Shown piece after piece: positions 15,701 to 42,700 of a stretch of 64,000 nt of DNA (position 1 is the stretch's first letter; the number at the start of each line of letters is the position of its first letter). Both the position numbers and the translations under genes were made by a program. Under the pieces are notes generated by a model. It was not told the origin of the DNA. It ran no database searches and worked only from the letters and a program-made list of their open reading frames with translations. This DNA is from Mobula hypostoma (Eukaryota). Location of the stretch: the NCBI RefSeq assembly GCF_963921235.1, contig NC_086108.1, positions 53,322,001-53,386,000 on the forward strand, read 5' to 3'.

Positions 15701-18700
15701 TGCTTTAACAGAGAGGGTGACTCTTAAATATCTCACTTCTTATCAGTTGTAACACACAGACAAAATGCTTTAGGAGCTCAGCAGGTCAGGTAGAATCTGT
15801 GAAGGGAAATAAATAGTCAATATTTATTTCCCTCCTGATAAAGGGACTTGGCCCGAAGCATCGACTATTTATATCCCTTCATAGGTGCTGCCTGACCACT
15901 GAGTTACTCCAGTGTTTTGTGTGTTCCTCAAGATTTCTAGCATCTACAGAATTTAATGTGACTTTTTATCAGTTCACTGATTACATCAGCAATCTCTGCA
16001 AAGGGTTCCTATGTTTAAAACTGCATGCTATCATGTCATCTTTTGAGGACAAAAATCAGAATATCCAAATGTAAATAAAAATTTAATCTGTTTTATACAG
16101 TTAAATCTTATTTATTGACTGATGGGCATGTGATGGAATACAAAAGTGTGATCAGAATTAAGGGATGAGAAAGTAATTTTGTAAGTTTTTGGGAATATTG
16201 AATTGACTTTGTTACTTATATCCTTCATATACATGAGGAGTAAAAATCTTTACGTTATGTCTCTGTTCAAATGTGCAATTATAGTAATAAAAATATTATG
16301 TACAACAGGATAGTCAATATAACATAGAAATACAATTGCATCAGTATGAATTAAGCAGTTTGATGGCCTGGTGGAAGCAGCTGTCCTGGAGCCTGTTGGT
16401 CCTGCTGTTATGCTGCAGTACCGTTTCCTGGATGGTAGCAGCTGGAACAGGTCGTGGTTGGGATGTCTTGGGTCTCCAATGATCCCTTGGAACCTTTTTA
16501 CACACCTGTCTTTGTAAATGTCCTGAATAGTGGAAAGTTCACATCTACAGATGCACTGGGCTGACCACACCACTCTCAGCAGAGCCCTGCGATTGAGGGA
16601 AGTACAGTTCCCATACTAGGCAGAGATGCAGCCTGTCAGGATGCTCTCAATCGTGCCCCTATAGAAAGTTCTGAGAATCTGCGGGGCCATACCAAACTTC
16701 TTCAACTATCTGAGGTGAAAGAGGCGCTGTTGTGCCTTTATCACCACATAGCTGGTATGTACAGACCACCTGAGATCCTCAGTGATGTTTATGCTGAGGA
16801 ACTTAAAACTGTTCACTTTCTCAGCCCCAGATCCATTGATGTCTATAGGGGTTAGCCTGTCTCCATTCCTCCTGTAGTCCACAACCAGCTCCTTTGTTTT
16901 TGTGACGTTGAGGGAGAGGTTGTTTTCTTGACACCACTGTGTCAGGGTGATGACTTCCTCTCTGTAGGCTGCCTCATTATTACTTGAGATTAGGTCAAAC
17001 AGTGTAGTGTTGTCAGCACATTTAATTAGCAGATTGAAGCTGTGGGTGTCGACAAAGTCATGGGTACATAGAGAGTAAAGGAGAGGGCTTAGTACACAGC
17101 CCTGAGGAGCACCTGTGCTGAGGGACAGAGGTGAGGGAGCCCACTCTTACCCCCTGCTGGCGATCGGACAGGAAGTCCAGGATCCAGCTACACAAGGCAG
17201 GGTGAAGGCTGAGGTCTCTGAGCTTCTTGTCAAGCCTGGAGGGAATCATGGTGTTGAATGCTGAACTGTAGTCCAAGAGCAGCATTCTCACATATGCATC
17301 CCTCTTCTCCAGATGTGTAAGAATGGTGTGTAGAGCTGTGGCTATTGTGTTGTCTGTTGATGAGTTGAGTCAGTAAGCGAATTGTAGGGGGTCCAGTGTG
17401 GGTGGCAGCAAGCTGCAGATGTAGTTCTTGACCAGCCTCTCAAAGCATTTACTTATTATCGAGGTAAGTGACTTCTGCGGGTCAATTGGTGAAGTATTTA
17501 TTTAAACTGTTCTGCATCTGTTTGAAGTTCAGTTTGAATTTTTATATCTAATTTGAGCATCTGCCAATTATAGCAGTGTCCGATTTTGTAGGTTTAATAA
17601 TTTTGATTTTTGCCTTATGTTACACTATGTGAACAAAAAATATAGAGAAGAAATATTGACTGCTGTTTGCTTCAAAACTAGAAGCAACCTCTTTCAATTT
17701 CCGTTCCTAAGGGGTAAAGATAACATGATATTGACTTTGTAAAGTCAATATTTGTGTAGTGTTAATGTTGATTTTTTTTGTTTTCTTTCCTCCTTTCATT
17801 GGTTATATCTTCCTTTCAACATCCAATACAATAACAGTTGTAAATGCTTGGAGAGAAAATTGGAAAATGCTACTGTTCTGGTTGTGAATGAGAGCCTGGA
17901 GACCTTCTGTAAAAATTGTGCATTGATGATTTTTGTGCTGCAGTGTGGAGAAACAACAGAGCCACATCCCACTTGACACCTTTTCCCCCATACCTATCAA
18001 CCCCAAAACACAAAGGCAGCATAAATATATGATGAAATAGAAAAGACGTCATGCCTTTCTATATTAGATGTCTGAATGCAGGGTCTCAATGGGACTGTAT
18101 GTCACATACTCCTTCCAAGTAATTATACCCCTTAGGTTCTTTTGAAGATAATTCCACCCCATTAATAGCTTCCACCAAAAAAAAGACATCTGATGCAAGA
18201 AAGGCCCTGGTGTTATTTTATTTTGAAATCATGTTTTGTTTAACAAAATGGTAGAATGTTGTAAATTTATTGCAGAATACATTGGAGTTTGTTAAAAGGA
18301 TTGCATGTTAATTGCTTATGAATTACCTGGTCAGTTAAGCATTTTTGGGAAGAACAGAAATAGTTATGCACCACAGAAGCAGGAATATTCCTTACTTGAG
18401 TTTATGCAATCCTATTCCCATTTACCCTTGTTAAGCAAAGATTAGTTAAAATGACACAGCATTTGTAGATGCTTTTAGCTGGGGGTGACAAACTCCTTTA
18501 AAAATGAACATCTTAGCACAATAGCAAAGTGAAATATATTTTTTTTAAAAATAGCTGCAACTACATTTAAAATCTGTGCATCCTTTTCTCATTTTCAAAC
18601 TGAGCTGAATATTACGCCTGGGGCATAGGGATGTTATAATGTATTACAGCCCAGCCTCTGTCTGCTCTTTGTGATCAGTAGGTCTGTCTTGTTTTTAATC

Positions 18701-21700: not shown

Positions 21701-24700
21701 AGACGTAGATTAATAAGATTCCGTGAAGGTTAGATGGTTTTTTATTAGTGTACTCTAGGAAGTTGGAAGTGTCTCTACCAGTAAAAAGCTTGCTGCATGG
21801 TTATATGTTTATTTGAGCACATATTTATTTGTCATGGAATATTAGAAAATAAAAAATGCCTTTTTCCAAAATGTCCCTTCTATTAATTTTAAAACCACAA
21901 TTCTATGTCCCAAGTATTTTGCATTCATGTCTTGTGTATTCCTCATTCTCACTCAGGTTACCTTGAGAAGGTGTTGAGTATTGCTAGATAACACTTGAGT
22001 AATTAATTTAAAATTGTGTACAATAACTTTTAAAAGATAAAGAAGATATTGATTTCCTAAGAGTATATAAAATTATTTTAATGGCTAATTTTAAGGATTT
22101 TGTGTGCAAATTACATGTGAGTTTACAGTCTTTAAATCTCTGTTTTGAAATTGACCCAGAAATTTTTAATATAGCATCTCTCAATTTTATCCTCAGTATG
22201 ATCAAAGTTTTTGGCTATCCCAAAAGCAACCATGCAAGGCATTGGAAGTGAGTCAATTGCACTGTGAAGGGTCTTTGTGATCCCATTTAAAAAAAACATT
22301 GTGACTCTAGAGTTAGAAACTACTACCTTAACATAAAATTGTAGGCCACTCTACATCCAGAATCTTACATGATTTTTTAAAGTTAATCAAATTTCGAAGC
22401 TCGCAAATAACTAAAGTGTGCAAAATTTCACTTTTAATATATTTAATTATTTTTTCAAATTGAAATGCTATTTTGATGTCTGCCTGCATTAATGAACATT
22501 AATAAAAATCATGTCATGCACTTCTTATACAAGGCAACTTTTGATGTTTCATATTTATACCTTTTTATTATAGAATTGGCAACATGCTTGGTCAAAGGGA
22601 TGCTTTTTCCTTGAAGATAATGATGGAATTGTTAGTCATCGTTATAGACTGGAATTACATCAAACTACTAATGTTTTTCTTACCATCGGACCATTAAACC
22701 TTGGCCAAACTGAAGGTATAATTTGTCAAGAATTCTGCAACAACTAAACTACAGTGGGTTGATATTTTAAATACTGCAAACAGTTTAAACAAAAAAAATA
22801 TATTTCCCCGAGATTAGTTGGTCTGCTGGAAAAGGAAGACAATTTGCTTCGTGTAAGTAAGATGAGGAAAGGTATTTTAAATTAATATGAGATTTGCAAA
22901 CAAAGATATAATGTGTGATTGTTTCTTGGCTCAACGTGTCTAAGAGGCCACAATGATTACAGTGTCCCTGCAGGTATACATTCATCAGTAATCATTTCAG
23001 TAATAAAAATTCACTCTTTTATCACAAGTCACCACCAAAAGATTTGAAGGAGTAATGTTAGTTCATTATTACAGAGTTTTTATGGGGAAAAAATAAAAAG
23101 CATAATATATACTTAATAATTAAATTAGTTTATCAAGGACGAATTTCTCAAGTCGCTAGTTCACAGCAGGGGGGCCTCTTCAGGGATTTGCTTTGGAAAC
23201 TGACAAGTCAATCTGTTCTATTGGTACTTTATCCAGCAATAAAAATCCATTCTCTAGTTATTTAAAACAATGATCTCCCCCCACAATAAAATCAGAAATC
23301 TTTTGTCAATACACTGTACATCTACAGTGGCATTAATGTCGTGAGAAAAACTTCCCTTGAGAATGCATCTCTGTTTATAACATGGGATTCAATGGGGAAA
23401 AAAGGATTTTGCATTCCAGAAATCGCAATAGAGGTAGTTTTTTATGCCCCTTCTTAACATGGAGGTATATTGAATCTTGATGAGGTATCTGTAATTTTCC
23501 CAAGAAATGCACCTGAAGCAAAATAATCACCCTTGAATTTGAAATACCTAGGAATATATCCTTAAAAGTATCACGTTCAGTGAAATGTGGGTATTTTTTA
23601 AACAAGAAAAATGCAAATCAGACTTCCTGGTAAAGGGACTCATTGATGCTGCCTGACCTGCTGAGTTCTTCCAGCATTTTGTATTAATCAGATTAACAGT
23701 CCCTTTACCAGTGAACTGCCCAACATACTGCTTATCTATGAACACTTTGTGTATCATTTTCCATTGAGAACCTGCTGCAAGGTCTCAACTCTAAGCCCAG
23801 TGACAATGTTCAACTCTGTGGTCTATCCTATATTGGGTGAGACAGAAGTAGCCCTGATATAAAGTTTTTTATTACTAGTTATAGTATTTCTTCCTGTATT
23901 TTATTGTGGGCATAATAGTTATGGAAACTTACTCAAATAACAAAAACAAATGCAGAATTGCTGAAACGTATCTGACATTTTCTTGAAGTCTCACCTCCAA
24001 GAAAGAATAATGTTTCTGACAGTAGATTAACATTCTACAGTAAATGTCTGATGAGTTTTTAAACTTACTTAAAGCAATTTAAATGAACTCAATTTATGAA
24101 ATCTAAAAATATGAGCACTTTAATCCCTTGAAACTGTTCCCCTCCATTGAAATCAAAGAGGAAAATATTTGAAACAACTTCAAATAGACTCCCCTTCTTC
24201 GCAAATGAAAATCATGCCATTGGAGCTGTGGGAAATTGCTAATGTCAGCTGCCAGTCATTTCGGGACTTGACACGTACATGGAAAGTCCAAATTAGCTGG
24301 CACTTGTACAGGAAAATTATGTCAATTCTACATGTAGCTACTGGCATTGTACTGCAAAATCCTGCCCATTAGAAGTAAAATATTAGGGAGTTGTACAGCA
24401 CAAAAACTGGCCCTATGGTCCAACTTATCTTTGTTGACTAATTTGTCTACCTAAGCTAGTTCCACTTACTTATTTAGGCCGTTTCCCTAATCAGCCAATG
24501 CAATTTATTCAAATCCAGTAAAAAGGAAACAGAAGATAAACACTTGGAGAACACAGTTAGAGAGATACTCAGATTACTATAATGAGAGAATAGAAGTTGT
24601 CTAAACAACAGTAAAATGTCTTTCAGAAGTGGAACAATAAGGATGCATTTAAGGATATGAAACAAAAACGATCAACTTGAAAATGTGAGCAAGCACGAGT

Positions 24701-27700
24701 TTAAATATTCTGTTTGGCTAGTTTCTACAACTATTCACAAGAGGAAGTATGTCTTGTATGCTGTCTTCATGATAACACCTCAAGCAAAAACAAACCAAAA
24801 TACTCAACATTAGACAGTATTTCTCTCTGTGCTTAATTGTGGGTATAATATTTATGGAAATTGCTTCAAATGAGTAAAACATAATTCAGAGCAATGGGGG
24901 TAAGATCTCTAGAATTGCATGAATGCTGAATGCAACAATGAGAATGAACTTGGGTTTGTATGGATCGATAGATGAATACCTGTGGACTGATAGTTTTCAT
25001 AATTTATAATTATCTTGTAATTATGTATCAGCCAAGAATACTTGACTGATCTTTGTGTTTCTGTTAGTCTCCCTATTTGCAACAAAATACAAATTCTGAG
25101 AGTTTGTCGATGATATATGTTATCATTTCTTTTATTCCCTGTTTGTTTCTTCCTTCTAAAGAACATAATGCAAGAATGAGATGTCATTTCCTGTGCTGTT
25201 TACTTCATATGTTATATCTGTGTTCAGAATTCAGAAAAGCTACTGTATTCCACAGTAATCACCATTTTCTTTTAACTCATAACTCTGACTTTAATGACGG
25301 AAAATACCAGCTTAATTGATGTTCCTAACTTCTATCCAGTCTTCTAATGCCAGACGTACTTCAGTGAACACAAAGGTATAATGTACCGAGTCTGGTAAAA
25401 ATATAAATGTGTTCATGTTATGATTTCCCTATATATTGTACACAGAACGAATCATGCCTTTTCACACAATGATTAGACTGGGTTTTGATGCCACAAATAG
25501 TCAAACGATTGTCAACACTCATGTCCAGGTATCAAACTTGAAGAATGGCTGTTTAAGTGAGGTTGGACATGGATGCCAAGCTCTAGCCAAAAGGAAATCA
25601 AATTACTAACTTGCAACTATTTTTTTCAAAAGGTTTCTAACTCTAGGTTCATTGCCTGCACAATGTTACACTGACTAATATGTATTTTATCTTATTTTTT
25701 GCATTTTACTGTTCTAGTTGGAAAATGGATGAAATGAATGTGTATGTATTATTTAATAGCATAAAAAAGTGCAGAGCAATACATTTTGTTACCTTAAAAA
25801 ATGTAGAGTTTTTAATACATATTTTACTAATCCTAAGGAAGTTCCCTCCTGTTTGACAGATGCAACATCACAAATCTTGGTAATGGCAGCACATCAATCA
25901 GCCAGTTCAATCATTCACAATATGAGAAATGTGTGTTCTGTAGTTTCATCAGGTTTTTATGAATTTAGCCTGGTATGGTTGCAGAATTTCAGACAGGACT
26001 ATTTATGATCTGAAATGGAAGCAAACTAATTTTGCCTCATAATTCCCTTGTAAAGTATGTTTAAATGATTCCCCAACCATTTTGAACACCTTATTGATTT
26101 TTAAATGTTTTATTCAATGTGCTGTAATCTTGTATTATTTGAATTCTGAACAACTTCTCCCCGATACAATATATCTTTATCCGTTTAACAATTGTAAAAT
26201 GACATACTTCCAACACAAACTTCAGCAGAATAATAAAGACTTTTTAATACACTCTACATTTTTTTGTTGCCTATGGATTAGTCTTTAAGTCTCAGTAACT
26301 TTACATTTGTTTCTACTGCTCAGAAAAATTATCGCCCTGGATGAATGTGGATACAGGATTATATGTTTTGAGGAATGTTGGTGATCCTGAAGCTCTGGAA
26401 GTTGTGTGTGTGACAGAATTACGCGAAAAGGAGGTCAGAATTATTAACAAAAATAAAGTCTTTGAATATGGATTTGTTGATTATTGAATTGACACATGGA
26501 GAGATGAAGTATTGATGATTAGTGTGCATATGGTCTAAATTTGTTATTCATCTATATGGTATCATCACTCAACGCACAATAGCTAATTCATAAATTGATC
26601 TCTTTCTGGGCAATCTCTGCCTCTGCTTTACACACCCATTCAACTTGCAAGAGTGAACCTGAGTTTCCAGTCTTCTGTCACTTTAATTTTCTGTCATCGG
26701 GTCATTGATCTGTACAACTCAGAAATGAGCTGTTCAGCCCACTATGTCTGGGCCATCCTTTTCGCACATCTATCTAATCTCATTTCCCCACATTAGAACC
26801 ATTTTCTTCTGTGCCCTGCAATTTAAGTGTCTGTCTGAATAACTCTTAAGTGTAGTAATTGTATCTTGTTCCACCACTACTTCTGAAAGCATGTTCCATA
26901 TAGCAACCAGTATCCTATTCTCACCTCTGTTCTTTTTCACTTATAATGATTCAATGGAGCCCGGTGTAAGCTCTCAAATGGTATTTCATCTTTCATCAGG
27001 GCATGCTACAGCTGTCAGGACTTAATATTAAAGTTAACATTTTCAGATGATTTTTTTTCTTAGTGCTAATATGATTAGGTGTGTGGTACGTAGCTAAGTG
27101 GTTAGGGCATTGGACTCACGAACTGAAGGTCATGGGTTTGAGTCTTGGCCAAGGCAGCGTGTTGTGGCTTTGAGCAAGGCACCTAACCACACACTGCCCC
27201 TGTCCACCCAGCTGAGAATGGGTACCGGCAAATGCTGGGGTTAACCTCGCAATAGACTGGCGTCCTATCTGGGGGGAGTCTCGTACTCTCAGTCGCTTCA
27301 CGCCACAGAAACTGGCATAAGCACCGGCCTGATGAGCCACAAGGCTCAGGACAGACTTTAACTTTAAATATGATTAGGCCACATTGTTTGAACTTGTTTT
27401 ATTTTACCTTCTGTCCCTACTACCCAGTTTTTAAAACAGCATCCTGGAACTCTGGTGCTGGCCTGGTAGATCATGACCACAGGGGTTTCCTCCAGATGCT
27501 CTGGTTTCTTCCTACATACCAAATATTTGCAGGTTAGTTAGCTAATAGGCTACTGAAAGTGGTATCTAGTATGTAGATGAGTGCAAACTAGAGGAATTCT
27601 GCAGATGCTGGGAATTCAAGCAACACACGTCAATGTTGCTGGTGAAGGGTTGCCTTCGAAGGGTCTCGGCCTGAAACGTCAACTGTACCTCTTCCTAGAG

Positions 27701-30700
27701 ATGCTGCCTGGCCTGCTGCGTTCACCAGCAACTTTGATTTGTGTTGCATGTAGATGAGTGATGGCTTTAGGCTGGGTCAGTGGTTTGGCATGTAAGTAGA
27801 TTGGAATTTGGGGAGAATAAATTAGGTTTGTATAGGATTAGTGTAAAAATGAATGCTTTATAGGCATGGACTTGCTGTGCCTTGGGACCTGTTTGGTGCA
27901 GTTTCTCTGTATGATTCTTGTTTTCAGACTATTGAATGTTATGTTTATTACTCCAGCACACTTCTTGTATTAAAAAAATTAAAAGATATGGTACACAGAG
28001 GTTTAATAAAATTTCAGGTAAATTGAAGTATAAGGGAAAGTTGAGCATCCTTCAAACCCATAATAGAGTTCTCTAGACACTTTAAAGGGTGAAATTTTGT
28101 AATTATTGTCCCACGTGAAGTTTAACAGCAAATTAAGAATCAAAATCAGTTTTATTTCCAATGAAACTATCCTTTTTTTTTACATGAACTGAGTGAGTGA
28201 AGCTTTATCTTCAAATGGCAGTCAGATGGGTGTTTTGTATAATGAAAGGGATAAATGGATTATCTGCCCCCTCTAGAACCAGATTTTGCTTTAATATCTG
28301 TCATCTTATCACATCGATGTCAATCAAAGTCTTGGTCTGCGTCAGTTGAGAACCAACAATAGTCTGATGCATGAACAACAATAACCAACTATTCTCTTTA
28401 AAAAAAAAGGACCTGTCATGGAGAAGGCAAGTTTCACCAGTTTTGCCATTTGAAACTGCATGGATCAACTGCAGTATCCATCTTTGTTTTCCTCATTTCT
28501 TCATAAGAATCACCTGCAGTGTCAGACATTGGTCATTTGTTTGAAACATAAGGAAAACAATATCTTAGATGGATTTTTCATCTCCTTTTCTCTTGCATGC
28601 CAACAGTAGTGTTACACAGTTGTCTATTTTGCTCCACCTAAGCAAAAAGCAGAGGTGGGTATCAGCAAATATTGACTTTTTAAGTCCCACGTCATGTCTA
28701 TCACAACCTGTTGATGCTCCTTACAGTTGTACTGTCAAAGCCTTAAGGCCTCCTGTGGATAAGCAGGACAATGGATTCATTCTGTCTTTGTCTTTAGCTC
28801 CTATGATCTAAAGTGCCAGAGAAAATTGTTTTAGCAAGGAAGGACTCTGACACAAGCTTTGGTAGAAATTCATATTTCCTTAAGTATGAAACCTAGAATA
28901 AGCATTTGGTAACTTTGTGCTATTCGAGCAATTCACCTGAACAATGCAATATACCAACAGCTCTTTCCAATTGTGTTGTCCAGGAGTGTTAAAATGAGCA
29001 ATTTTCTTGATTTGGATTCAAAATTGGAATAAATCTTATTCTTTTATCTTGAAGCTTTATGCTAGTTATAGGGAAACCTGTCAAACTAGTTTAGATTTGA
29101 ATTTGACTCCCATGGGTGTAAGAAAAGTTTGTGGCACCAATTTTTGTGCATTTAAACAAAACCTGTTTAACAAATTGAAGTAAAATGTTTGATTCTTGAT
29201 TTACAGTGATAGCTTGTTTAAATTATAATTTCCTATAACAGAGATTTGGATGGAAGGGAGAGCTTCATTCAGGAGTTTATCAGCTAATCCCATTCACTAC
29301 TGGCTGCAGATTAAGGAAGAGGAATAAATCAATGATCCGAGAGGCCAAATTGGTCCACAGGGAAAATGGTGACTTAATGCTCACCAAGGAATTCAGGTAT
29401 GAGAGTTTATTTTAAATAAATGTTGTGCATAATAGGTAATTTTAAAAAGATGTTATTTGCAGAATATAAACAAATCATCAGTGTTAGAGGTAAAAAAAAA
29501 GAATTTTTGGAAATGCACAGCAGACTCTCAGTTTATCGAAGAGAAAATAATAAGTTAACAAATCAGTTTAACCCCTCTTTATCAGAACACCACACTCATG
29601 CTAGATAAGCCCATTAGTATTACCGAAAATGGGAGAAGTTCAAATATACTTCTCTGATGAACTGATAACTAGTTATTTGTATACATTGTAATAATTGGAT
29701 AATGTTGTAAATTTTTTTGGTAATCTTTACTATTTCATATTAGACGAATAGGCTAATAGGTTAATTGTTCAAATGGGTGGCATGGGCATGTTGGCCTGGA
29801 AGGGCCTGTTACTATGCTGTATATCCAAATAAATGTTGGTACTGTAATTCTTTTAACCAGTTTTAGACAAAAATAAGATGCAAGTTATGTTGCTTCTGAC
29901 TAGTAGGGAGAAAATTTGTCTTTAGAATATTATCTTAGTGCTTATTTTTGCAGTGTTTTCTGCTTTCATATTATTTTGATAATTCTAATCTTTTAGGGAT
30001 GCAGTAACAAAGGGCTTAAAAAACATTGTAAAATTATGCACGTGAGGAGAAAAATGCTATTGAGTTTTCGAGGATGCAATTACCTTAGTACCTAAGGATT
30101 ATTCTGTATTTTGATGATACAATCTCTCCAATTTGATTCTTTTCCTTTGCTTAGGGCTGCACTATCAGACATCTTTGAAGTTATCGATTTAGATGGCAAT
30201 GGGCTTTTAAGCTTTGACGAATATAACTTCTTTGAGTTGAGAACCAGTGGAGAGAAATGTGACAGTGAGGCCTGGGTTTTGTGTCAAGGTGAGGTGAACA
30301 ATATTATTTGCAGTTTGGTAATTCCCATGTTTTCTGTTTTAAACAGAAGTATTTTTAATCTGGACAATTTTTCATTGTTGTTGTGTTTAAATACCAAATC
30401 CTGTTTTTTTTTAAAAAAAGGAAGCTTAAAATTACAATAGAAGTAATGCTGAAAATTTTCATTTTGAGAGTAGCAGTACATTGTTAAAGGGAAGTATTTT
30501 ATCTGGCAATTCAAGATGTAATTAGAAGTTATTGAAAGAAATAGGAAAACAAATGAGAAAAGAAGATGCAGCACACATCAAAGTTGCCGGTGAACGCAGC
30601 AGGCCAGGCAGCATCTCTAGGAAGAGGTACAGTCGACGTTTCAGGCCGAGACCCTTCGTCAGGACTAACTGAAGGAAGAGTGAGAAAAGAAGATGGCTTG

Positions 30701-33700
30701 TTTGGTCTAAGTTCTCATTTCCAGCTGCTCAGATTATAAAACTTATGAGTGTATTTTGGACAACATTCTATCTGTCAGTCAAAAGCATTAAAGGAGCAAT
30801 GAATGTCTCGGATGTTACGAAGAGTTAAAATGGGAATTCTTTTGTACCTTGTAATGGGTGGTTTTAAGGCATCATCTAAAGATACTTGAGCCCCTTTGCC
30901 CACCCCTGTAGATGGCCTGCGTAAATTTCTGGGAAAGAAATGGGACAGTAAGAATTGCTGCATATTTTCAGTATCTTAGGGACATCAGTAAATAAGCAAA
31001 CATCTCCCATTTATTGGGTCAAGCACAAGATAGTTATTTTCAGATTGGGAGTTGGAATATTTTTTCTGTATTCACTCATCTTGCTACCAAAAGTTAGAAG
31101 GATACATTTTATTATACGTACACAGTGATATTTTTGTATTTAAATAGAAACTAGGTAATTGATTTATTCAAAGAATGAGGAACAAGCCTGAGGTCACGCA
31201 AAAATTTAGGCCTTAGCACATATTTTTAAAATTGTTTTTTCAGAAGTTATTGTTAGTGTATGAAGTACCACATGAAGATTTCCTTGCAGTGATATATTCT
31301 GTATTTTTCTTTGAGTAATTCCATTTCTTATAATTTCCTCATACATTAGCTATGATTAGCAAATGTATCTTTAATTACACAACAGATATAAGTTGAAGTT
31401 GAATGTATCTCAGACTAATAGGAGATTGCCAGAGTCTTGCAGTAATAGTGGATTCATGTTGCTGCTCATCAAGAAAAAATGGAAGTTCAGGCATTTGGAT
31501 GGGAGTTACATTTTCATTAACTTTGGAAAAACATAATGGATCCATGCTTGGAAAAGTGTTTAACTACTCTGCAACAGCTACGATTATAAATGAATGAGTG
31601 TGACAATAGAACAGTGTGAAAATATCTCCATGAAGCAATCCAGATTTGCCAAAATTTAATGAATGTTCCTTCATACTCAAGTTATATTAATCAGGCTTGT
31701 TATTGCAAAAGCAAACTCATTTGCCAGTAATGTTTGCCATATTTACCAGATTTTAGTTGTCAAATTCTGCATTGAAATTTATGATGCTCTGCTAAGGATA
31801 CAATAGTAAACCCTTAGTATATTTAGATTTTAAATATAATGTAGTATGGAAGGCTTCCCAGTTTTATTTGTGTACATCATAGGCTCCCTTGAATGAATTC
31901 CAGAACTATCTCTGCCAATGATATGCTAAAAGTTTGAAAAATATTGATCATCATTACATATTTTTCTACTTTGAATATTTTACAAATGCTGTGGGTGGTT
32001 TTGATAAATGTTACTTTGTTTAATTCAACAAATAAGTTGGGTTAATTAGTAATGAAAACCAAACAACTGGAGAAACTCAATGCATCAAGTCACACCTATG
32101 GGAGCAAAGGAATTGTCAGCACTTTGGATGAGGACCCTGCATTAGCACATCAGCAATTCTTTTCTCCCCCCCACCCCCACAGATGATGCTCAACCTGCTG
32201 AGCTTGTGTAGCAATTTTTTTTACTTCAGATTCTAGCATTTGCAGCTTTTGTATCTCCATTGTTAATAAGTGTATATCTTTAAATGATCTAATCAAAGGT
32301 AAGTGGCGATCTGCTGCTATGTAGAAGAGATTTTCTTTCATGAACAAATGCTATGGTCTATATTTAGGGCAATGTGGCATGACATCCATAGACAAATCAT
32401 GTGACATTTTTACACTTACAGTGAAGAGTAGCTAATGGTCGAGTGATTTGATTAGTGAGTATTTTTTGTTTAAAAATCTTGACTGCAGTGAATATGCAAG
32501 CATCATCATAGTAACAAATCAATTCCTATAATCTATTGATGCAAGATATTATTGAATACACATTGCACAGTCCAGAGGGAATAGCAAAGACGTTAACTAC
32601 CTAAAACAGTACGAGTAATTGAAAACCAGGGATTTAAGTATTGAGCTAGGAATCTGCTAATCAAGACAGTTACGATGAGGAAGGTTATTCAGCCTATCTT
32701 CAGTCATTCTTCTGTATTTTAGCAGTTAATTAGTTTTAAAATGTTATGGGGAAATAAATTCCTCTTTTGTTGTAAGCACTAAATGTATACAGCGGTGATG
32801 TAAACACATTGAAGTCTGGTTCCGAAATTCAGTAACTAGATCTAACTTTTGGAAGCAAAGTTCAACATGTATGCATTTCTGCTCATGAGTTAGTACATAC
32901 AACAGAGAGTAAATTTCTACCCAAGAGGTTTTCATCTAACTACTTGGAAAATTGTTTCATATATAGTGATCATTTTTTCTGTAAAGTACAATTTTTTGGA
33001 CATTTGTCCTGAATTTGGTGGAATCTGTTTTCATTTTACCTTTCTTAAACTTAAACTTTTTTTAACCTCAATATTTTAATATCTTTGTTTTGAGAAACAT
33101 ATTTCTAATGCTTACATAAGGGTATTTTAAAATAGGAGATAAACATGGCCTGTATAATGAAAGGAAGACAGAATATTTGAAATGGGGAAGACATTATTTA
33201 TCATCTGAAAGAGACACACAGGGTCAAGAAGTCAAAAGCGCTATGCTCAGTATTGCATAGCATTTTGTTTTAAGATGCTGGTCTGAATGTTTGCTCTGCA
33301 TTCCAGAGCTAGCTGGATATACAGTATAGGATCATTTAAGTTGGCTTTTGTTTTGTCAGCAGGACAAATAGGCTTAAAACCCATTGTAAATCATTTTAGC
33401 ATATCCAAGTAAGAAAAAATATTTAATCTTTTTAAAATTTTCTCTCTAATTTCTCAAAGTGATAACTTGTATTTGTGCAAGATCTTGTGGATATTTGCAG
33501 CTGTATAGTTTTTTCACATCATTTCAGAGAGCAAGGTTATTCAAGAGGTTGATAGTACAAATCAAGGCTAAACCTGAAGTTGATAGAACAAGTTAAGGCT
33601 AAATAAGTTTAGAACTATACCAAAAGGGTTCCCTTCCCTAACCCTGCAACAACAAAGCTAATCCAGAGCCAATAACATAAACCCAAAATGATGTTGTTGG

Positions 33701-36657
33701 ATGGAAGCAACACACATCAAAGTTGCTGGTGAACACAGCAGGCCAGGCAGCATCTATAGGAAGAGGTACAGTCGACATTTCGGGCCGAGACCCTTCGTCA
33801 GGACTAACTGAAGAAAGAGCTAGTAAGAGATTTAAAAGTAGGAGGGGGAGGGGGAGATCCAAAATGATAGGAGAAGACAGGAGGGGGAGGGATGGAGCCA
33901 AGGGCTGAACAGGTGATTGGCAAAAGGGAGACGAGAGGATCATGGGACAGGAGGTCCGGGAAGAAAGACAAGGCGGGGGGAGGAACCCAGAGGATGGGCA
34001 AAATGTGTGGCCACTGGGATTAATTCCACATCCCATTCCCATTCTGACATGTCTATCCATGGCCTCCTCTACTGTAAAGATGAAGCCACACTCAGGTTGG
34101 AGGAACAACACCTTATATTCCATCTGGGTAGCCTCCAACCTGATGGCATGAACATTGACTTCTCTAACTTCTGCTAATGCCCCACCTCCCCCTCGTACCC
34201 CAAGTGTTATTTATATACACACATTCTTTCTCTCACTCTCCTTTTTCTCCCTCTGTCCCTCGGACAATACCCCTTGCCCATCCTCTGGGTTCCCCCCCCC
34301 CCCCACTTTTCCTTCTCCCTGGGCCTCCTGTCCCATGATCCTTTCATATCCCTTTTGCCAATCACCTGTCCAGCTCTTGGCTCCATTCCTCCCCCTCCTG
34401 TCTTCTCCTATCATTTTGGATCTCCCCCTCCCCCTCCCACTTTTAAATCTCTTACTAGCTCTTTCTTCAGTTAGTCCTGACGAAGGGTCTCGGCCTGAAA
34501 TGTCGACTGTACCTCTTCCTAGAGATGCTGCCTGACCTGCTGTGTTCACCAGCAACTTTGATGTGTGTTGCTTGAATTTCCAGCATCTGCAGAATTTCTC
34601 GTGTTTACGTTGTTGGATGGAAACTTATTTAGTGGTAGAATAATTTGTGCAAGAACCTTTAAGGTGCAGGCATCAAGGGATCTGTTTTCCAGTTCATTAT
34701 TGGTCTGCTGCTACTTTTATCATCACCATTCATTTGTTTTAAATATCTAAATTTTCTTTCTCATACTGAATTTAGGAGAATTATTTTCTCTCCAGCTTCA
34801 TTAATTACTAATCCTTGGTGAATCAGCAAATCCAGATATTTACGTAGGTTTGACAGTGTGAGCAATTAGGCTGATTTTCAACTTTTAGGCTCAGAGATTG
34901 AAATGCAGAACATTCTATGTTTGGCAATGCTGGCAAATGGTACCAGCCTGCAGGCAAATGAATGGGCAGAAGGAACCAGGTGGGGGAGAGGGAGGGGTAA
35001 GATGGAGACAGTTGCTGGAGAATGATGTATAGCAAGTGGAAATGGGACTTTTAGGGGAGGGACGAAGTACAGGTTGAACCAGATGGGGAAAAGGATCTGG
35101 TGGGTGAAATGTGTATGTAGTGGGTGGATTGAACCAGGAAGGGGAGGCAGATGCAAATGTATGATGGTGAATGGGGGAGTTCAGGAAAGGGAACAAAGAT
35201 GTGAGGACCAGAGATGAACTGGAAGGAGTGGAGATAATGGAGTACAGGAAATGAGGGTTACATGAAATTGGAAAATTCTGTGTTAATACCATTGGGCTAT
35301 ACAATACACAGATGGAATATTAGATGTTGTTTTGTCAAGTTTGCTTAAATCCTCATCTTAGCAGTTAAGTGGAAAAGACTGAGAACAGTCAGGTTGGTAT
35401 GGAAATGGGGAGGTGAGTTGAAATGGCACGCAACTGGAGCTCGGGCAGGGTGCAGGTACCCTGTGAATCTACATTTGGTCTTTTGATGTAGTGGAGGCTA
35501 AAGTATAGAGGTTGGTAGAAATAAGTAAACTATTGCTGACATTATTTTGTTTTGCAGTTGTAATCATAATTCCAAAATGTCATGTTGCTGTTCTGGTGTT
35601 AGAATAAAGGGTTGAATGAATGTTGAAAATCTTTTGGAGAAGTATGCAGTGCTTTTAGAACAAATTACATGAACAAAGGTAGGTGATGTCGAGCAAAAGG
35701 AGTTTAAGATGTTAAGTGTGAAACAGAGAAAAAAAAGTCCGAAAGATCAATGCCTTTGGATTTCTTATTACATTGTAATTGTTCAGTGAAGATTTTGAAA
35801 CTTAGCATAAAGGCTCAGGGTTTTTGCATATAGAAAACAGCTGGGGTGATGGTGCAATTGTAACAAATGTAACCCATTGGAAGTGAAACCCAATGATTCA
35901 CCCAAATTGCTCTGACAGTTCTTGCACCTCCAGGTCATCATTCTAATTTGAAAGAATATCAGTGGTGCTTCATTGTTTCTGACTCCAATCTTGGGACTGT
36001 GTATGATGGGAGCTCCTTAATCAGATGGCCAAAGGAAGTGCTCCTTGCCAGCTTCTGAAGTGAAATTAAGGATGGGAAATAAGTGTTGGCCTTATCAGCA
36101 ATGTCAATATCTTAAAATTATTGAATCCACTGTTGTGAGAAGTAATTCAGCATGAACGATATTTGCATTTGCAGTGTATTAAACCTTCAAAACAATCAAT
36201 TAAACCAAGAAAATTTTGTAGTTAAGGGAGAATTTGTGAGATCTTGAAAATAACTGGATTGCACAGCCATAAGTGATATCAGCATTAATATGAAAGGATA
36301 ATTATAGTTTAGTTGTGGATGCACAACATTGAACAGAACCAATAATCATAGGGTCCAAAATACAATCTTGGAGAGATTAGGTGGAAAAGAAAATAGATTT
36401 TAAGTGATGCAGAAGAATGAGCGCAGTTCGATAATATGTTTAGTTAAAAAAATCCAGAGGGAGATATTTTGAAGTGAATGTTATCATGCAAGCAAAACTG
36501 AGCTATTTGTCTCTGAATGCTAATCCAAATTCCCAGCTAATCTATTGTACTCAAGCACATCTTCAGTGTTTCTTTATTGTGTCATGACTGTGGGTTTTTA
36601 TATATATATATATATATAATGTGTGTGTGTGTATATGTATATGTGAATATGTGTATA

Positions 36658-36707
<50 letters not shown>

Positions 36708-39700
36708 ATGTAGAGTATAAAACTATAAAACATTAAAAAAACATACTTGGATATTGACTGCTCAGCTACAAATCTGACACATGGGCATGTGCAAATATTT
36801 AAATTTGACCGCCTTTGAAGTGGCAACATACACATGCACATGGCCATCGAACTTTGCAGCTCCTCCCGTGGAGGGTCAGACACCCTGAGCCAATAGGCTG
36901 GTCCTGGACTTATTTCCATTTGGCATAGTTTGCATATTGTTGTTTGATTGTTTGTGGTTTTTGTATTGCTATATTTATGCTCTATTCTTGGTTGGTGCAG
37001 CTGTAACGAAACCCAATTTCCCTCGGGATCAATAAAGTACATCTATCTATCTATCTACATTTCTTGGTTCATTTGTAGGATTCCTGTCTCTATTGCCCCC
37101 TTTGCCCTCCACCTGTCAACAGTGGTGCACCTCCCCACTTAATCATGAATAAGCCAATTAAATAAATCAGTAAAACCCAATTTAGCAACAGGCATACATT
37201 ACAGGGTACAAATTCTTAGAGATGAGAGAAATGGAGCACGTTGACAAAGTATGGTAAATGAGTGCTGCTAAGAGCAGAAAATGAACTGCATTCACGTTTC
37301 CGTGCTCCTTTATTTTCTGCATATCTAGGCATGGCTTCAAAGGGAGACAGTGAGTAGGACTTTCAGAGTTAGTAGAAAGAACAAATGGTGTAGTTTTATG
37401 GGTCTAATTATGAGGTGATGCACTTTGACAAAGAAAGCAAGGGATATGAGCATACACTCAGTGGAAACTCATTCAAAGCTATTTGTTGAAACATGCATTT
37501 CCCCAAAAGTACATTTCTAGATGTCTAAATACATAAAAATGATCTGAGTTTTCAGAAATGCAAACAACAGGAATTCTGCAGATGCTGGAAATTCAAGCAA
37601 CACACTTAAAAGTTGCTGGTGAATGCAGCAGGCCAGGCAGCATCTCTAGGAAGAGGAATAGTCGACGTTTCAGTTAGTCCTGATGAAGGGTCTCGGCCTG
37701 AAACGTCGACTGCACCTCTTCCTAGAGATGCTGCCTGGCCTGCTGCGTTCACCAGCAACGTTTATGTGTGTTGCCTGAGTTTTCAGAATCAGTTTTAATA
37801 TCACTGGCATATGTCGTGAAATTTGTTAACTTTACAGCAGCAATGCAATGAAATAGATGATAAATATAGAGAAAAAACTGAGTTACATTAAGTATATATC
37901 TCTATTAAACAGTTAAGTTAAAATAAGTAGTGTAAAATAACAAAAATAAAAAAGTATTAAGGTAGTGTTCATGGGTTCAATGTCCATTTAGAAATCGTTT
38001 GGCAGAAGGAAAGAAGCTGAGTATGTGCCTTCAGGCTTCCGTACCTCCTTCCCTGTGGAGTGCCAGTGTTAATTGTCAGCAAAGTGAAGATGTTATTTCC
38101 AGTCCGGACCAATTGTGGTCTTCTGATTAGGAAGTCAAGGATCCAGTTACAAAGGAGGTACAAGGGCCTAGGTTCTGTAGCTTTTTGATCAGGACTGTAG
38201 GAATAATGGTGATAAATGCTGAGCCATAGTCAATGAACAGCATCCTGACATAGGTATTTGCATTGGCCAGGTGATCCAAGGCTACATGGAGAGCCATTTG
38301 AGATCACGTCTGCCGTAACCTATTGTAGCAACAGTCAAATTGCTGTGGGTCCAGGTCCTCCTTGAGACAGGTGTTGATTCTAGCCATGACCAACCTCTCA
38401 AAGCATTTCATCACCTTAGATGTGAGTGCTTCTGGATGATAGTCATTGAGGCAGCTCACACTGCTCTTCTTGAGCACTAGTATAATTGCTGCTCTTTTGC
38501 AGCAGGTGGGAATTTCCAACTGTAGCAGTGAGAGATTAAAGTATCTTTGAATACTCCCGCCAGTTGGTTGGTACAGGTTTTCAGAGCCTTACCAGGTACT
38601 CCATCAGGTCCTGCTGCCTTGCAAGACAGCCTGACATCAGCTTATGAGACAGAGATCAGAGGGTCACTAGGTGTTGCAGGGATCCTCATAAATGTGGGTT
38701 TATTCTCCCTTTTAAAGCAAGCATAAAAGATGTTGAGCTCGTCTGGTAGTGAAGCATCACTGCCATTGGGTTTTACTTAGTAGGAAGTAATGGCCTGCAA
38801 ACCCTGCCAGAGTTGACATGCATCTGATGTCGCCTCCAACCTCTCCCTGAATTGTTTCTTGGCGCTTGAAATAGCTCTCCACAAGTCATACCTGGTTTTC
38901 TTATACAGACCTAGATCACCAGACTTAAGTGCCACAGATCTAGCCCTGAGCAGACTTATGAACCTCCTATATCACCCACAGCTTTCGGTTTGGGAATGTA
39001 CAGTAAGATTTTGTTGGCACACGCTCATCCACATAGGTTTTAATGTAGTCGGTAACAATTGTGACATTTTCATCCAGGCTCGAAGATGATGCCCTGAAAA
39101 TTGATTCAAAGCAGTCCTGTGTGTGCTTCTGTGCTTCCCTGGTCCATACCTTCTTGGTCCTCACTACTAGTACTGCAGTCTTAAGTCTCTGCCTATACTC
39201 GGGGAGTAGAAGTACAGCCAGGTGATCAGACTTACCAAAGTGTGGGCAGGGTGTGGAATAGCATGGTAGGCACTCTTGAACTTAGTGTAAGAGTGGTCCA
39301 GTGTGTATTTCCTCTGGTGATATAGGTGATTTGTTGATAATAATTATTTAGTGACTTTCGCAAGCTGGCCTGGTTAAAATCCCCCAAAATAATGGAGAAG
39401 GTATCAGGATGTGTTGTTTCATGCCTGTTGATTATATTACTCAGTTCATCTAGAGTCTGTCTGACATTAGCCTGAAGTGGAATATACACCACTACCAAAA
39501 AGATCATTGAAAACTCTTGCTGCAGGTAAAATAGCCGGCACTTAATTGCGAGGTATTCCAGGTCTGGTGAGCAATATTGGGATGTTACTGATACGATAGT
39601 ACACCACAAGGAATTGATCATGAGGCATATACCTCTAACTCTGCTTTTGAGAGACTCAACCAACCTGTCTTGATGATGTATTGTGAAGCTGTCTATTCGA

Positions 39701-42700
39701 ATCGCTGCATCTGGCACGGAAGGGGTTAACCATGATTCCGTAAAACAAAGGACACACGTGTTCCTAATGTCCCTCTGATACAGCAGCCTAACTCTGAGAA
39801 CATCAGTTTTATTTACCAGAGACTGCATGTTTGCCAGCAAGATAGTTGGTATTGGGAGTCTAAAAAAATGAGGTTTTCAACTCACTTTCAGACTAGCACA
39901 TCGACTCCTCTTTCGCTGGCAGCTTTTTAAAGAGGCGGTGTGCTGGCCATAGTCCAGTATATTTCCGTCGGTTTTAAGCAGTGATGGCTTGTTCAATTGC
40001 ATTAGGACTTCATCACTGACTGTACACATCATAGATGCATTTATGGTTCTCAGTTGTAGCAGACTAAAATGAAAATATTTGATGTGTTCCATCATTTTCA
40101 ATGAGAGCTATTTTAAGAAATAAAATCTGAGTTTTAAAAATAAAAATATGGAAATATAGAATAGAGTCACAGAAATTTGCACAGAACGCCAGTTAAATTG
40201 CAACTGAAGTAGTTTGTCTATTTTGTAAATACCATTAGAATACCATTAAAGCCATCCCGAGCTTATAGCATACATTTCACAGATTCACTCGCAAAGTACC
40301 AAGGTAGAAAACAAGTTATGAGGAGAAAATGAAATTGCTGAAACAATTTCAATGGAACCAGAGAAGGCTAAGACAATTTTTAATGTTGATTTTGTTTTAA
40401 GTTTTTTTTCCTCTATAACTACCTCTATCCAGATCACATGCAAGTGACCTGGGTTATATGAGCTGTATTTAAGTGGTTTGGTGGGTCACATGTTCCCAGT
40501 GTCTTTGGTAATATCTGCTTGAACTGTTTGCTGGAATTTGTGTTACAGCAACCTCAGATGAATGTGGTTTGCAAATCTGTACAGGGTGTTTAATTATACA
40601 TTCACTTCACATCATACTTCCACATTCTGCACAGAAAACTTTGACACAAAGAAAAATCAACTGACACGACAGGGTTTCATGGAATTGAACCTGATGGAAG
40701 CCAATGATCGGGAAGGTGATCCAAGAGATCTCTGGATTACACTTGAATCAATGGGTTACAACAGAGCACTGGAAATGCAAGAGGTATGTGTTCCTTTAGC
40801 CTTAAAGCAATAAGTTGTCGACAATTTACAATAAGAGAGAAGGATGTGCTTAGTGGTGGGGTCCTGTTGAAGGTGGCAGAAGTTGCGGAGGATAATGTGT
40901 TGGATCTGGAGGTTAGTGGGGTGGTAGGTGAGGACAAGGGGAACTCTGTCCCTGTTGTGGTGGCGGGAGGATGGGGTGAGGGCTGAAGTGCGGGAAATAG
41001 AGGAGATGCGGGTGAGGGCATCATTGATGACAGCAGAAGGGAAACCATGATCCTTAAAGAAAGAGGACATTTGAGATGTCCTGGAACGGAAAACCTCATC
41101 CTCGGAGGAGATGCGGTGGAGACGGAGGAATTGGGAATAGGGAATGGCATTTTTGCATGTGGCGGGGTGGGAAGAGGTTTAGTTGAGGTAGTTATGAGAG
41201 TCAGTGGGCTTGTAGAAGATGTCAATGGACAGTCTGTCTCCAGAGATGGAGACCGAGAGATCAAGAAAGGGGAGAGAAGTGTCCGAGATAGACCAAGTGA
41301 ATTTGAGGGCTGGGTGGAAGTTAGAAGTAAAGTTGTTGAAATTGACGAGTTCAGCATGGGGGCAGGAAGCAGCACCAATGTAGTCGTCAATGTACCGAAG
41401 GAAAAGTTGGGGAGCAGTACCAGAATAGGTTTGGAGCACAGACTGTTCCACAAAACCAACAAAGAGGCAGGCATAGCTAGGGCCCATGCGAGTTCCCATA
41501 GCTACACCCTTGGTCTGAAGAAAGTGGGAAGAGCCAAAAGAGAAGTTATTGAGTGTGAGAACCAGTTCCACCAACTGGAAGAGGGTAGTGGTGGTGGGGA
41601 ACTGGTGAGGTCTATTATCCAGAAAGTAGCGGAGGGCTTTGAGGCCTTCTTCATGGGGAATGGAGGTGTATAGGGATTGGAAAGTCCCGACGAAGGGTTC
41701 CAGCCTGAAACGTCGACTCATCGTTTCCACGGATGCTGCCTGACCTGCTGCGTTCCTCCAGCATGTTGTGAGTGTTGCTTTGACCCCAGCATCTGCAGAT
41801 TATTTTGTGTTTACAATAAAAGAGAAATGTAATTCTAAAATTTTTCATGCTTTCAGGTGTATACATTTTATAATTTATTCTGGAACATTGTTATTGCTAG
41901 GTTTATTTAACATGTAAGAAGAAAACTTGTGTTTATAATGTGTATCAGGTTAAGATTTGCTTGTACTGAATGATCATTGATACTTCCTGTTTGTCCCTAA
42001 ATGCTACCTGACCTGCCGAGTATTTGTAGGTAATTTTCTTTTGGTAGTATTTTGCTTTTGCAACAGTGCTAGTGTACCTTTTTTAATTAAGCATTTAAAT
42101 TTAGAACATTAACCAATAGCAGACAGATTTACTGTATGTTGAGCTCCCAATTGTGAGTCAACTGCTACTGGAAAGGCATATTGCATAATTGTTTTGTTAG
42201 GTTATTAAGAATTTCAATAAATTAAGTTTCATAATCGTAGCTTGTAACTAGTATCATTGCCCCTCGTCAGAAATAATTCGCAATTGCACTGCGTATCTTT
42301 AGATTACATTCCATCTCAAGTTCTTCTAACTTTTGGTAGCTATGCCTTCAGTCTGTTAGGCCTGGGTTCCTTAATTCCCTTCATCAAGACTCATTCTTTC
42401 CCCCTCTGTTGTTCCTCAAAATCTAGATCTAACCAAGCTTTTGATTACTCTTTCAAGCTTTCAATTACTATAATTAAGCTTCTGTGTAGAGACTTTCTGA
42501 TGGTTTCTGAGATGAAAGATAATATATAAATGCAAATTATATATTTACTTCAGAGCATTGGTGTTTTTATTTATTAATTTCTCATTAAAGAATTTTTTTT
42601 ATATAGGCTTGTCCATTTGTTGTTGATATCTATGCAGAAGATAGCAAAATTAAGCTGACACCAATCAGTCTGGAAGCAGATGGAAGGCTCCTGAATTTAG

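Follow-up and report, generated by a model that had tools for sequence, protein, structure and literature searches.

The DNA analysed here (hereafter, the window) is a 64,000-nucleotide stretch of contig NC_086108.1 of Mobula hypostoma. The 217-bp insert at positions 37558–37774 of this window raises the question of whether a small, hairpin-forming, ribozyme-bearing sequence is an element that spreads by itself or the remnant of a larger one. The initial annotation left the choice between an extreme truncation product of a Penelope-like element (PLE) and a non-autonomous ribozyme retroelement of ~200 bp. As discussed below, the insert is very probably a truncated PLE product by one route or another, and it probably represents a known type of insertion at its smallest rather than a ribozyme element able to spread by itself. 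Its importance as a novel class of element is slight, as the evidence speaks against such a class. The interest lies elsewhere: the origin of the inverted repeats and one-sided tails of PLEs is called an open question in PMC8557442, and minimal insertions, which hold both ends, the target site duplication (TSD) and the junction within 220 bp, are the cleanest record of the inversion and tail step. Repeat finders could also mistake such copies for MITEs or hairpin RNAs, and within introns the copies give rise to strong hairpins. The locus is in an intron of the ray EFCAB7 gene. The EFCAB7 exons map to the plus strand between 3616 and 52922, with one 45-residue exon peptide identical to a Mobula birostris protein, and the PLE pieces from 12313 to 41814 all fall between mapped exons.

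The insert (copy K) consists of two PLE pLTR ends placed head to head within a perfect 14-bp direct repeat (Table 1), as the initial annotation had described. When 1500 random boxes of the same size were used as a control, a repeat of at least 13 bp was found in 1 and a repeat of at least 9 bp in 3. The absence of coding sequence claimed earlier is borne out by the lack of any overlapping ORF of at least 100 aa and of tblastn matches to either of two PLE proteins (0/2). The predicted hairpin of the insert has an energy of -151.6 kcal/mol (z = -17.6), and none of 200 shuffled sequences was as stable. The head-to-head arms make a near-palindrome that is not symmetric, one arm in every case bearing some 35 additional bases. 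The additional bases of copy K form the tail of its left arm, which retains only the 3′ half of the hammerhead.

Table 1 Features of the focal insert (copy K) and of related PLE copies in the window; signed arm positions and centre junctions are relative to the predicted hammerhead cut
Feature	Position	Strand	Centre junction	Remarks
Left TSD copy, focal insert	37544–37557	+		14 bp; straddles the point where host DNA meets the 3′ tail of an older LINE
Left arm, focal insert	37558–37673	-		Inverted pLTR end with tail, +106 to -10
Tail of focal left arm	37558–37596	-		About +68 to +106; absent from right arm; from a 21-arm alignment
Centre junction, focal insert (K)	37669–37673		-10/-39	5-base microhomology common to both arms
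Right arm, focal insert	37669–37774	+		pLTR end without tail, -39 to +67
Minimal type I hammerhead, focal insert	37676–37711	+		Motif search; predicted cut after 37707
Right TSD copy, focal insert	37775–37788	+		14 bp
Sister palindrome C	14295–14500		-10/-32	Of an older subfamily; left arm tailed (to -10), right arm without tail (from -32); TSD 9 bp, perfect; hammerhead core mutated
Sister palindrome E	15749–15965		-4/-30	Of another subfamily; left arm without tail (to -4), right arm tailed (from -30); TSD 9 bp, perfect; inverted filler of ~11 bases at junction
Sister palindrome G	27584–27747		+41/-23	Young subfamily of the focal insert; TSD 13 bp, perfect; short filler; tailed arm extends no further than +41; tail-less arm begins at -23, lacking the core
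Palindrome I, decayed, probable	32051–32261		About +14/-31	10-bp flanking repeat with 1 mismatch; arms only ~46% alike
Long-armed copy J	33707–34608		-231/-505	Layout and subfamily of the focal insert; TSD 14 bp; 20-base local inversion at junction
Solo tail-less truncated copy H	30569–30680	-		-46 to +66; 112 bp; intact core; TSD 15 bp
Copy B	13847–14009	-		Tail piece (+100 to +62), then same-direction restart at +68 that duplicates ~7 bases; 163 bp; TSD 11 bp
Copy L	40842–41814			RT fragment (minus strand) head to head with a pLTR end that has the tail (-32 to +104); 12–17-bp flanking repeat, one mismatch; ~50 bases past an EFCAB7 exon
Copy A	12313–13048	+		Endonuclease end and pLTR, tail-less; TSD 10 bp; internal inversion 12714–12810 (hammerhead remnant between two plus-strand parts)
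Copy D	14594–15655	+		Thumb, cysteine linker, GIY-YIG remnant, tailed pLTR; no convincing TSD

The surroundings of the insert are informative with respect to its history. An older LINE occupies 37553–40124 on the minus strand, with an endonuclease-like frame at 39232–39876 (weak Pfam match) and an 11-bp flanking repeat of its own (37542–37552 and 40125–40135; chance 0.001). The focal insertion point is 5 bases into the LINE tail; since the focal TSD straddles the edge of the older LINE, the palindrome landed after the LINE. Contigs from four of 24 sequencing runs were compared with positions 37250–38050; none among the matches listed covers this region in full. In organisms A, possibly the source of the window, and B, contigs cross the flank and enter the insert as far as 37579. 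The orthologous contigs of C and G match exactly to 37557, the end of the TSD, and then diverge into 46 and 49 other letters. Because they stop matching at this very position, organisms C and G likely hold empty sites with a single TSD copy, judging from these short contigs.

Several similarities link the insert to longer copies. Its arms are 88–93% identical to copy J, the body of which matches copies A and D at 83–85%; A and D, in turn, match the GIY-YIG end of P0016, a protein with both reverse transcriptase (RT) and GIY-YIG domains. Copy L carries an RT, with the best relatives in rays and sharks (67–85%). For the small palindromes in general, the arms are 86–95% identical to arms of longer or non-palindromic copies, and all 217 bases of the focal insert align to the pLTR end and tail of the RT/GIY-YIG element. 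J's own endonuclease remnant gave no Pfam or tblastn match. By sequence similarity, the inserts can thus be assigned to an endonuclease-bearing PLE, with a PLE-type RT plus a GIY-YIG domain at the C terminus, and the part of the initial annotation that proposed extreme truncation products of PLEs agrees with the match between the arms and longer copies that retain RT or GIY-YIG remnants. A CX2-5CxxC linker is present in copy D (frame 14691–15005), whose subfamily is older than that of the focal insert, and in the homologues P0016 and P0054. According to PMC8557442, this linker excludes Penelope/Poseidon and is common to Neptune and Nematis; in copy D it therefore points to Neptune or Nematis, not Poseidon. 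The RT of the window's PLE is also embedded in database isoforms of rays and a skate that are named as host genes (P0001, P0002, and P0009: kinase-domain, chitinase-domain, and nicotinamide riboside kinase), which would represent either annotation artefacts or exonisation. A SINE consists of a separate RNA-derived head and a LINE-type 3′ end. This identity was rejected for the focal insert, as 217 of 217 bases align to the PLE pLTR end and tail.

Thirteen loci with similarity to the pLTR end were examined in the window. Perfect flanking repeats of 9–15 bp are present at 8 of them and one-mismatch repeats at 2, with nothing convincing at the remaining 3 (D, F, and M); the boxes searched for A, D, F, L, and M were larger than the control box. 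The three sister palindromes C, E, and G, listed in the initial annotation with TSDs of 9, 9, and 13 bp, were recovered with those perfect TSDs; the fourth, copy I, remains only probable given its mismatched repeat and poorly similar arms. Copy J, which was missing from that list, has the same layout on a larger scale, with a tail-less arm of 295 bp, a tailed arm of ~600 bp that reaches the endonuclease end, and two hammerhead motifs on opposite strands. In copy L, the RT fragment begins inside the ORF, beside the left TSD. Copies with the same ends make up a graded series of sizes, 112 to 973 bp. Copies K, G, J, H, and B fall together in a young group (80–97% identity; tree support 0.997), with C, E, I, A, D, and L being of greater age; the tree of arms is poorly resolved among the old copies. 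The two arms of each copy belong to one subfamily or age class.

The outer ends of the arms fall at two fixed places. In the 8 tail-less arms measured, the end lies between +66 and +70, and in the 7 tailed ones between +95 and +106. A tailed arm is paired with a tail-less one in 6/6 two-armed copies (5/5 without the decayed copy I), an outcome with a chance of 1 in 64 if the ends were independent at even odds, although these copies number only six, were picked for recognisable arms, and include one that is badly decayed. The centre junctions, by contrast with the outer ends, differ in 6/6 copies when the window copies are aligned, including the three young copies G, J, and K, which sustains the earlier proposal that each palindrome forms anew at insertion. 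In K, G, C, and I (4/6), each arm has bases that are missing from the other; the arms of E and J (2/6) are nested and compatible with either fold-back or dual priming. In K, G, C, E, I, H, and L, which represent several subfamilies, the inner breakpoints cluster between -46 and -4, around the hammerhead. Four are at -30 to -32, the outer edge of hammerhead stem I, and none is at the +1 cut site. Ribozyme cleavage was accordingly discarded as the cause of truncation, no arm ending at +1. Inspection by eye of eight TSD edges for a cut-site consensus gave nothing firm.

The hammerhead of the focal insert has a 4-bp stem I, the core, a 3-bp stem II, and no real stem III. It shares the conserved core, the 4-bp helix I, the lack of helix III, the extra base after position 9, and the palindromic 15.2–16.2 positions with the minimal metazoan PLE hammerheads described in PMC4209133 (Cervera and De la Pena 2014). 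It differs from these in its shorter helix II and in the absence of the usual G-C pair at 10.1–11.1, position 11.1 being U (the left arm of J has C); moreover, the second hammerhead of the focal copy is cut in half. An Rfam search at E up to 1 returned no hammerhead and 6 weak, unrelated matches. Motif search found four intact cores in the window. The central hammerhead proposed in the initial annotation as a general feature is real in the focal copy; it does not extend to the other four small palindromes, in which the cores are mutated or cut. Its place near the centre of the insert follows from its distance of 70–100 bases from the start sites. In constrained folding, the energy needed to impose the ribozyme fold is 25 kcal/mol within the insert, 8–10 kcal/mol in solo arms, and 4 kcal/mol for the hammerhead alone. 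The ribozyme is thus predicted to be buried by the long hairpin and, on the folding model, is likely inert in the insert; minimal hammerheads are described as inactive as monomers (PMC4209133). The hammerhead is likely a passenger, and the copy was likely dead on arrival. The same paper reports pairs of opposite-strand hammerheads 100–700 bp apart in Schistosoma and attributes them to truncated PLEs.

The layout is less novel than the initial annotation supposed, since an inverted pLTR, a one-sided tail, and a TSD are already published for PLEs (PMC3846280, PMC8557442, PMC4209133). The insertions described by Arkhipova et al. 2013 (PMC3846280) and Craig et al. 2021 (PMC8557442) have the same head-to-head, inverted, 5′-truncated partner, a 30–40-bp tail at one end only, a hammerhead in the pLTR, and TSDs of variable length (8–10 bp in rotifer PLEs; PMC3846280). 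In the ray copies, unlike those, both arms are cut to 60–130 bp with no body in between, and the copies are very abundant. Where they discuss the mechanism, these two papers leave it open or favour self-priming, whereas the non-nested arms found here argue for two primings. In a mainly open-access literature, judged by titles and the openings of abstracts, no report of mini-palindromes like these or of twin priming by PLEs was found.

In our opinion, the focal insert is best explained by a single integration, during which each of the two nicked target strands served as primer for reverse transcription and both products suffered extreme 5′-truncation; we assign this reading a probability of roughly 0.64. 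We infer four steps. The endonuclease would nick the two target strands 9–15 bp apart, and each 3′-OH would prime cDNA synthesis with pLTR RNA as template, the tail site being used by one and the pLTR-end site by the other. Both cDNAs would abort after ~60–130 bases, often in or beside the hammerhead, and their 3′ ends would then anneal via microhomology, with host repair closing the gap. The combination of head-to-head arms with an intact TSD has the geometry of L1 twin or dual priming (PMC2837659, PMC11702581). Copy L, in which the second arm starts inside the ORF at the TSD, repeats the L1 twin-priming pattern, and copy B, which restarts at +68 on the same strand, also supports dual priming. 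Some precedent comes from the Poseidon element PAc studied in vitro by Frangieh et al. 2024 (PMC11167929): the purified protein nicks and extends both strands, the RT has two adjacent start sites that bracket the tail, and the template is uncleaved RNA, just as the arms here cross the cut site. PAc belongs to another clade, however, the family here having a cysteine linker, and the relevant passages of that paper draw no link to inverted insertions. The start sites of the Poseidon-clade element are described as AC-rich, whereas GU-rich sequence precedes both ends on the sense strand here, which counts against the dual-priming reading. As to L1 (Meyer et al. 2010, PMC2837659; PMC11702581), the likeness includes two primings from two target nicks, inverted arms inside the TSD, and microhomology at the inner junction, dual priming being only postulated in the passages of Meyer et al. 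concerned. L1 arms mostly derive from non-overlapping parts of one RNA; here, in contrast, the two arms are copies of one and the same terminal region, begun at two fixed sites, and the result is a near-palindrome.

The regular pairing of a tailed with a tail-less arm is not predicted by independent dual priming, so that paired start sites become an extra assumption. A stricter version, which we hold only tentatively and consider rather less probable than its negation, makes the pairing obligate: a protein dimer would hold the start sites ~35 bases apart, one subunit priming each target strand, and every inverted PLE insertion, one-sided tail included, would consist of two joined cDNAs. If this were true, the tiny ray palindromes would be its minimal products. 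Because palindromes are abundant in rays, such a model is countable genome-wide, and it is testable with the existing in vitro system.

The main competitor of dual priming is fold-back, or self-priming, in which a single strand would fold on a short inverted repeat (-39 to -35 with -10 to -6 in the focal insert) and extend along itself to give a hairpin, the arms of which the endonuclease would later trim unequally, so that the tail stays on one side only. Self-priming on an antisense template has been proposed for PLEs (PMC3846280), as has the origin of the tail by endonuclease resolution (PMC8557442), and a staggered trim would account for the asymmetry of all six copies at once. The focal junction does fall on such an inverted repeat, copy C uses an almost identical repeat, and E, G, and J contain short inverted fillers. 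However, the non-nested arms of K, G, C, and I mean that simple fold-back of one cDNA needs a further step, and without trimming it fails in these 4/6 copies. Trimming of fixed polarity would make one kind of arm always the deeper one, and yet this is the tail-less arm in 4 copies and the tailed arm in 2. Fold-back also leaves unexplained copy B and the second arm of copy L, and the two outer ends match RT start sites found in vitro (PMC11167929). We thus regard it as unlikely. Of the earlier suggestion of de novo fold-back or template switching, the unique junctions uphold the de novo origin; simple fold-back does not fit most copies. Later central deletion of longer, J-like inverted insertions via microhomology appears improbable. 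Long inverted repeats are unstable, and the microhomology and fillers at the junctions would also fit repair deletions, but the breakpoints cluster near the hammerhead in several subfamilies and copy J itself survived. Furthermore, H (112 bp) and B (163 bp), neither of them palindromic, are equally short with intact TSDs, which indicates that short products arise at insertion. Microhomology-mediated loss has nonetheless been described in PLE copies (PMC3846280). A MITE moved by a DDE transposase has in its favour only size and hairpin appearance and can practically be dismissed: the TSDs tabulated in the window are long and variable (9, 9, 13, 14, and 14 bp), as already noted in the initial annotation in favour of retrotransposition, the inverted repeat fails to reach both ends, and every base of the insert aligns to the end of an RT/GIY-YIG element. 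Variable TSDs together with unequal termini led us to reject the MITE.

The idea of a ribozyme mini-element, under which some palindromes would give transcripts that the PLE machinery copies again as whole units, fares about as poorly as central deletion. The cis start region is retained in the insert, and non-autonomous PLE derivatives are known (bioRxiv 10.64898/2026.07.22.740005; MRC1, PMC8557442). Among them, the non-LTR retrozymes (bioRxiv 10.64898/2026.07.22.740005) are likewise small, non-coding, hammerhead-bearing, and PLE-derived. Their units are, however, head-to-tail tandems, each with a ribozyme, whereas the inserts here are head to head with one ribozyme or none; retrozyme identity was rejected, as two or more head-to-tail units with complete hammerheads, which define retrozymes in that report, are absent. 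The lack of tandem ribozymes, the high cost of the ribozyme fold within the insert, and the junctions that differ even between young copies all weigh against a self-copying unit, and this part of the initial annotation is only weakly supported.

Contig joints from the four sequencing runs bear on the same point. Of 1086 joints, the best-supported 15 include 8 within the insert, with no dominant junction among these 15 and none above ~20 copy-equivalents; a very common junction might go unseen in short contigs, and no joint would be produced by copies sharing the focal junction. A joint at 37557–37789 is absent from these best-supported 15 of 1086. Head-to-head joint types reach depths of 185–197, compared with 9–17 for the flank, and the depth of the arms is in the millions, i.e., five to six orders of magnitude above that of the flank; summed depth does not equal copy number, and counts for run X1 are incomplete. 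Still, some head-to-head junctions recur at ~5–18 times the single-copy depth among the best 15 of 1086, and the few recurrent ones favour limited re-copying. Joint 37605–37676 is found in all four runs (depth 7–197). Joint 37632–37739 has a depth of 185 in one contig of run X1 (organism A) only, where the flank depth is ~10; it gives a palindrome free of ribozyme and is a candidate for amplification on a small scale. Joints whose intervening sequence is labeled "between: not known" and loose ends at 37676 were left uncounted and may reflect diverged subfamilies. The "opposite strands" joints at 37605–37757/8 were disregarded, since they probably arise where mapping jumps from one arm to the other. 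A scan for the focal pattern gave no match in viral contigs and one in metagenome contigs, which had no pLTR on either side and was attributed to chance.

A pLTR scrap at 23623–23711, flanked by 7-bp repeats, was also noticed. It starts with a 14-base inverted copy (23627–23640) of its right flank (23698–23711), which, as read by eye, suggests a template switch onto target DNA.
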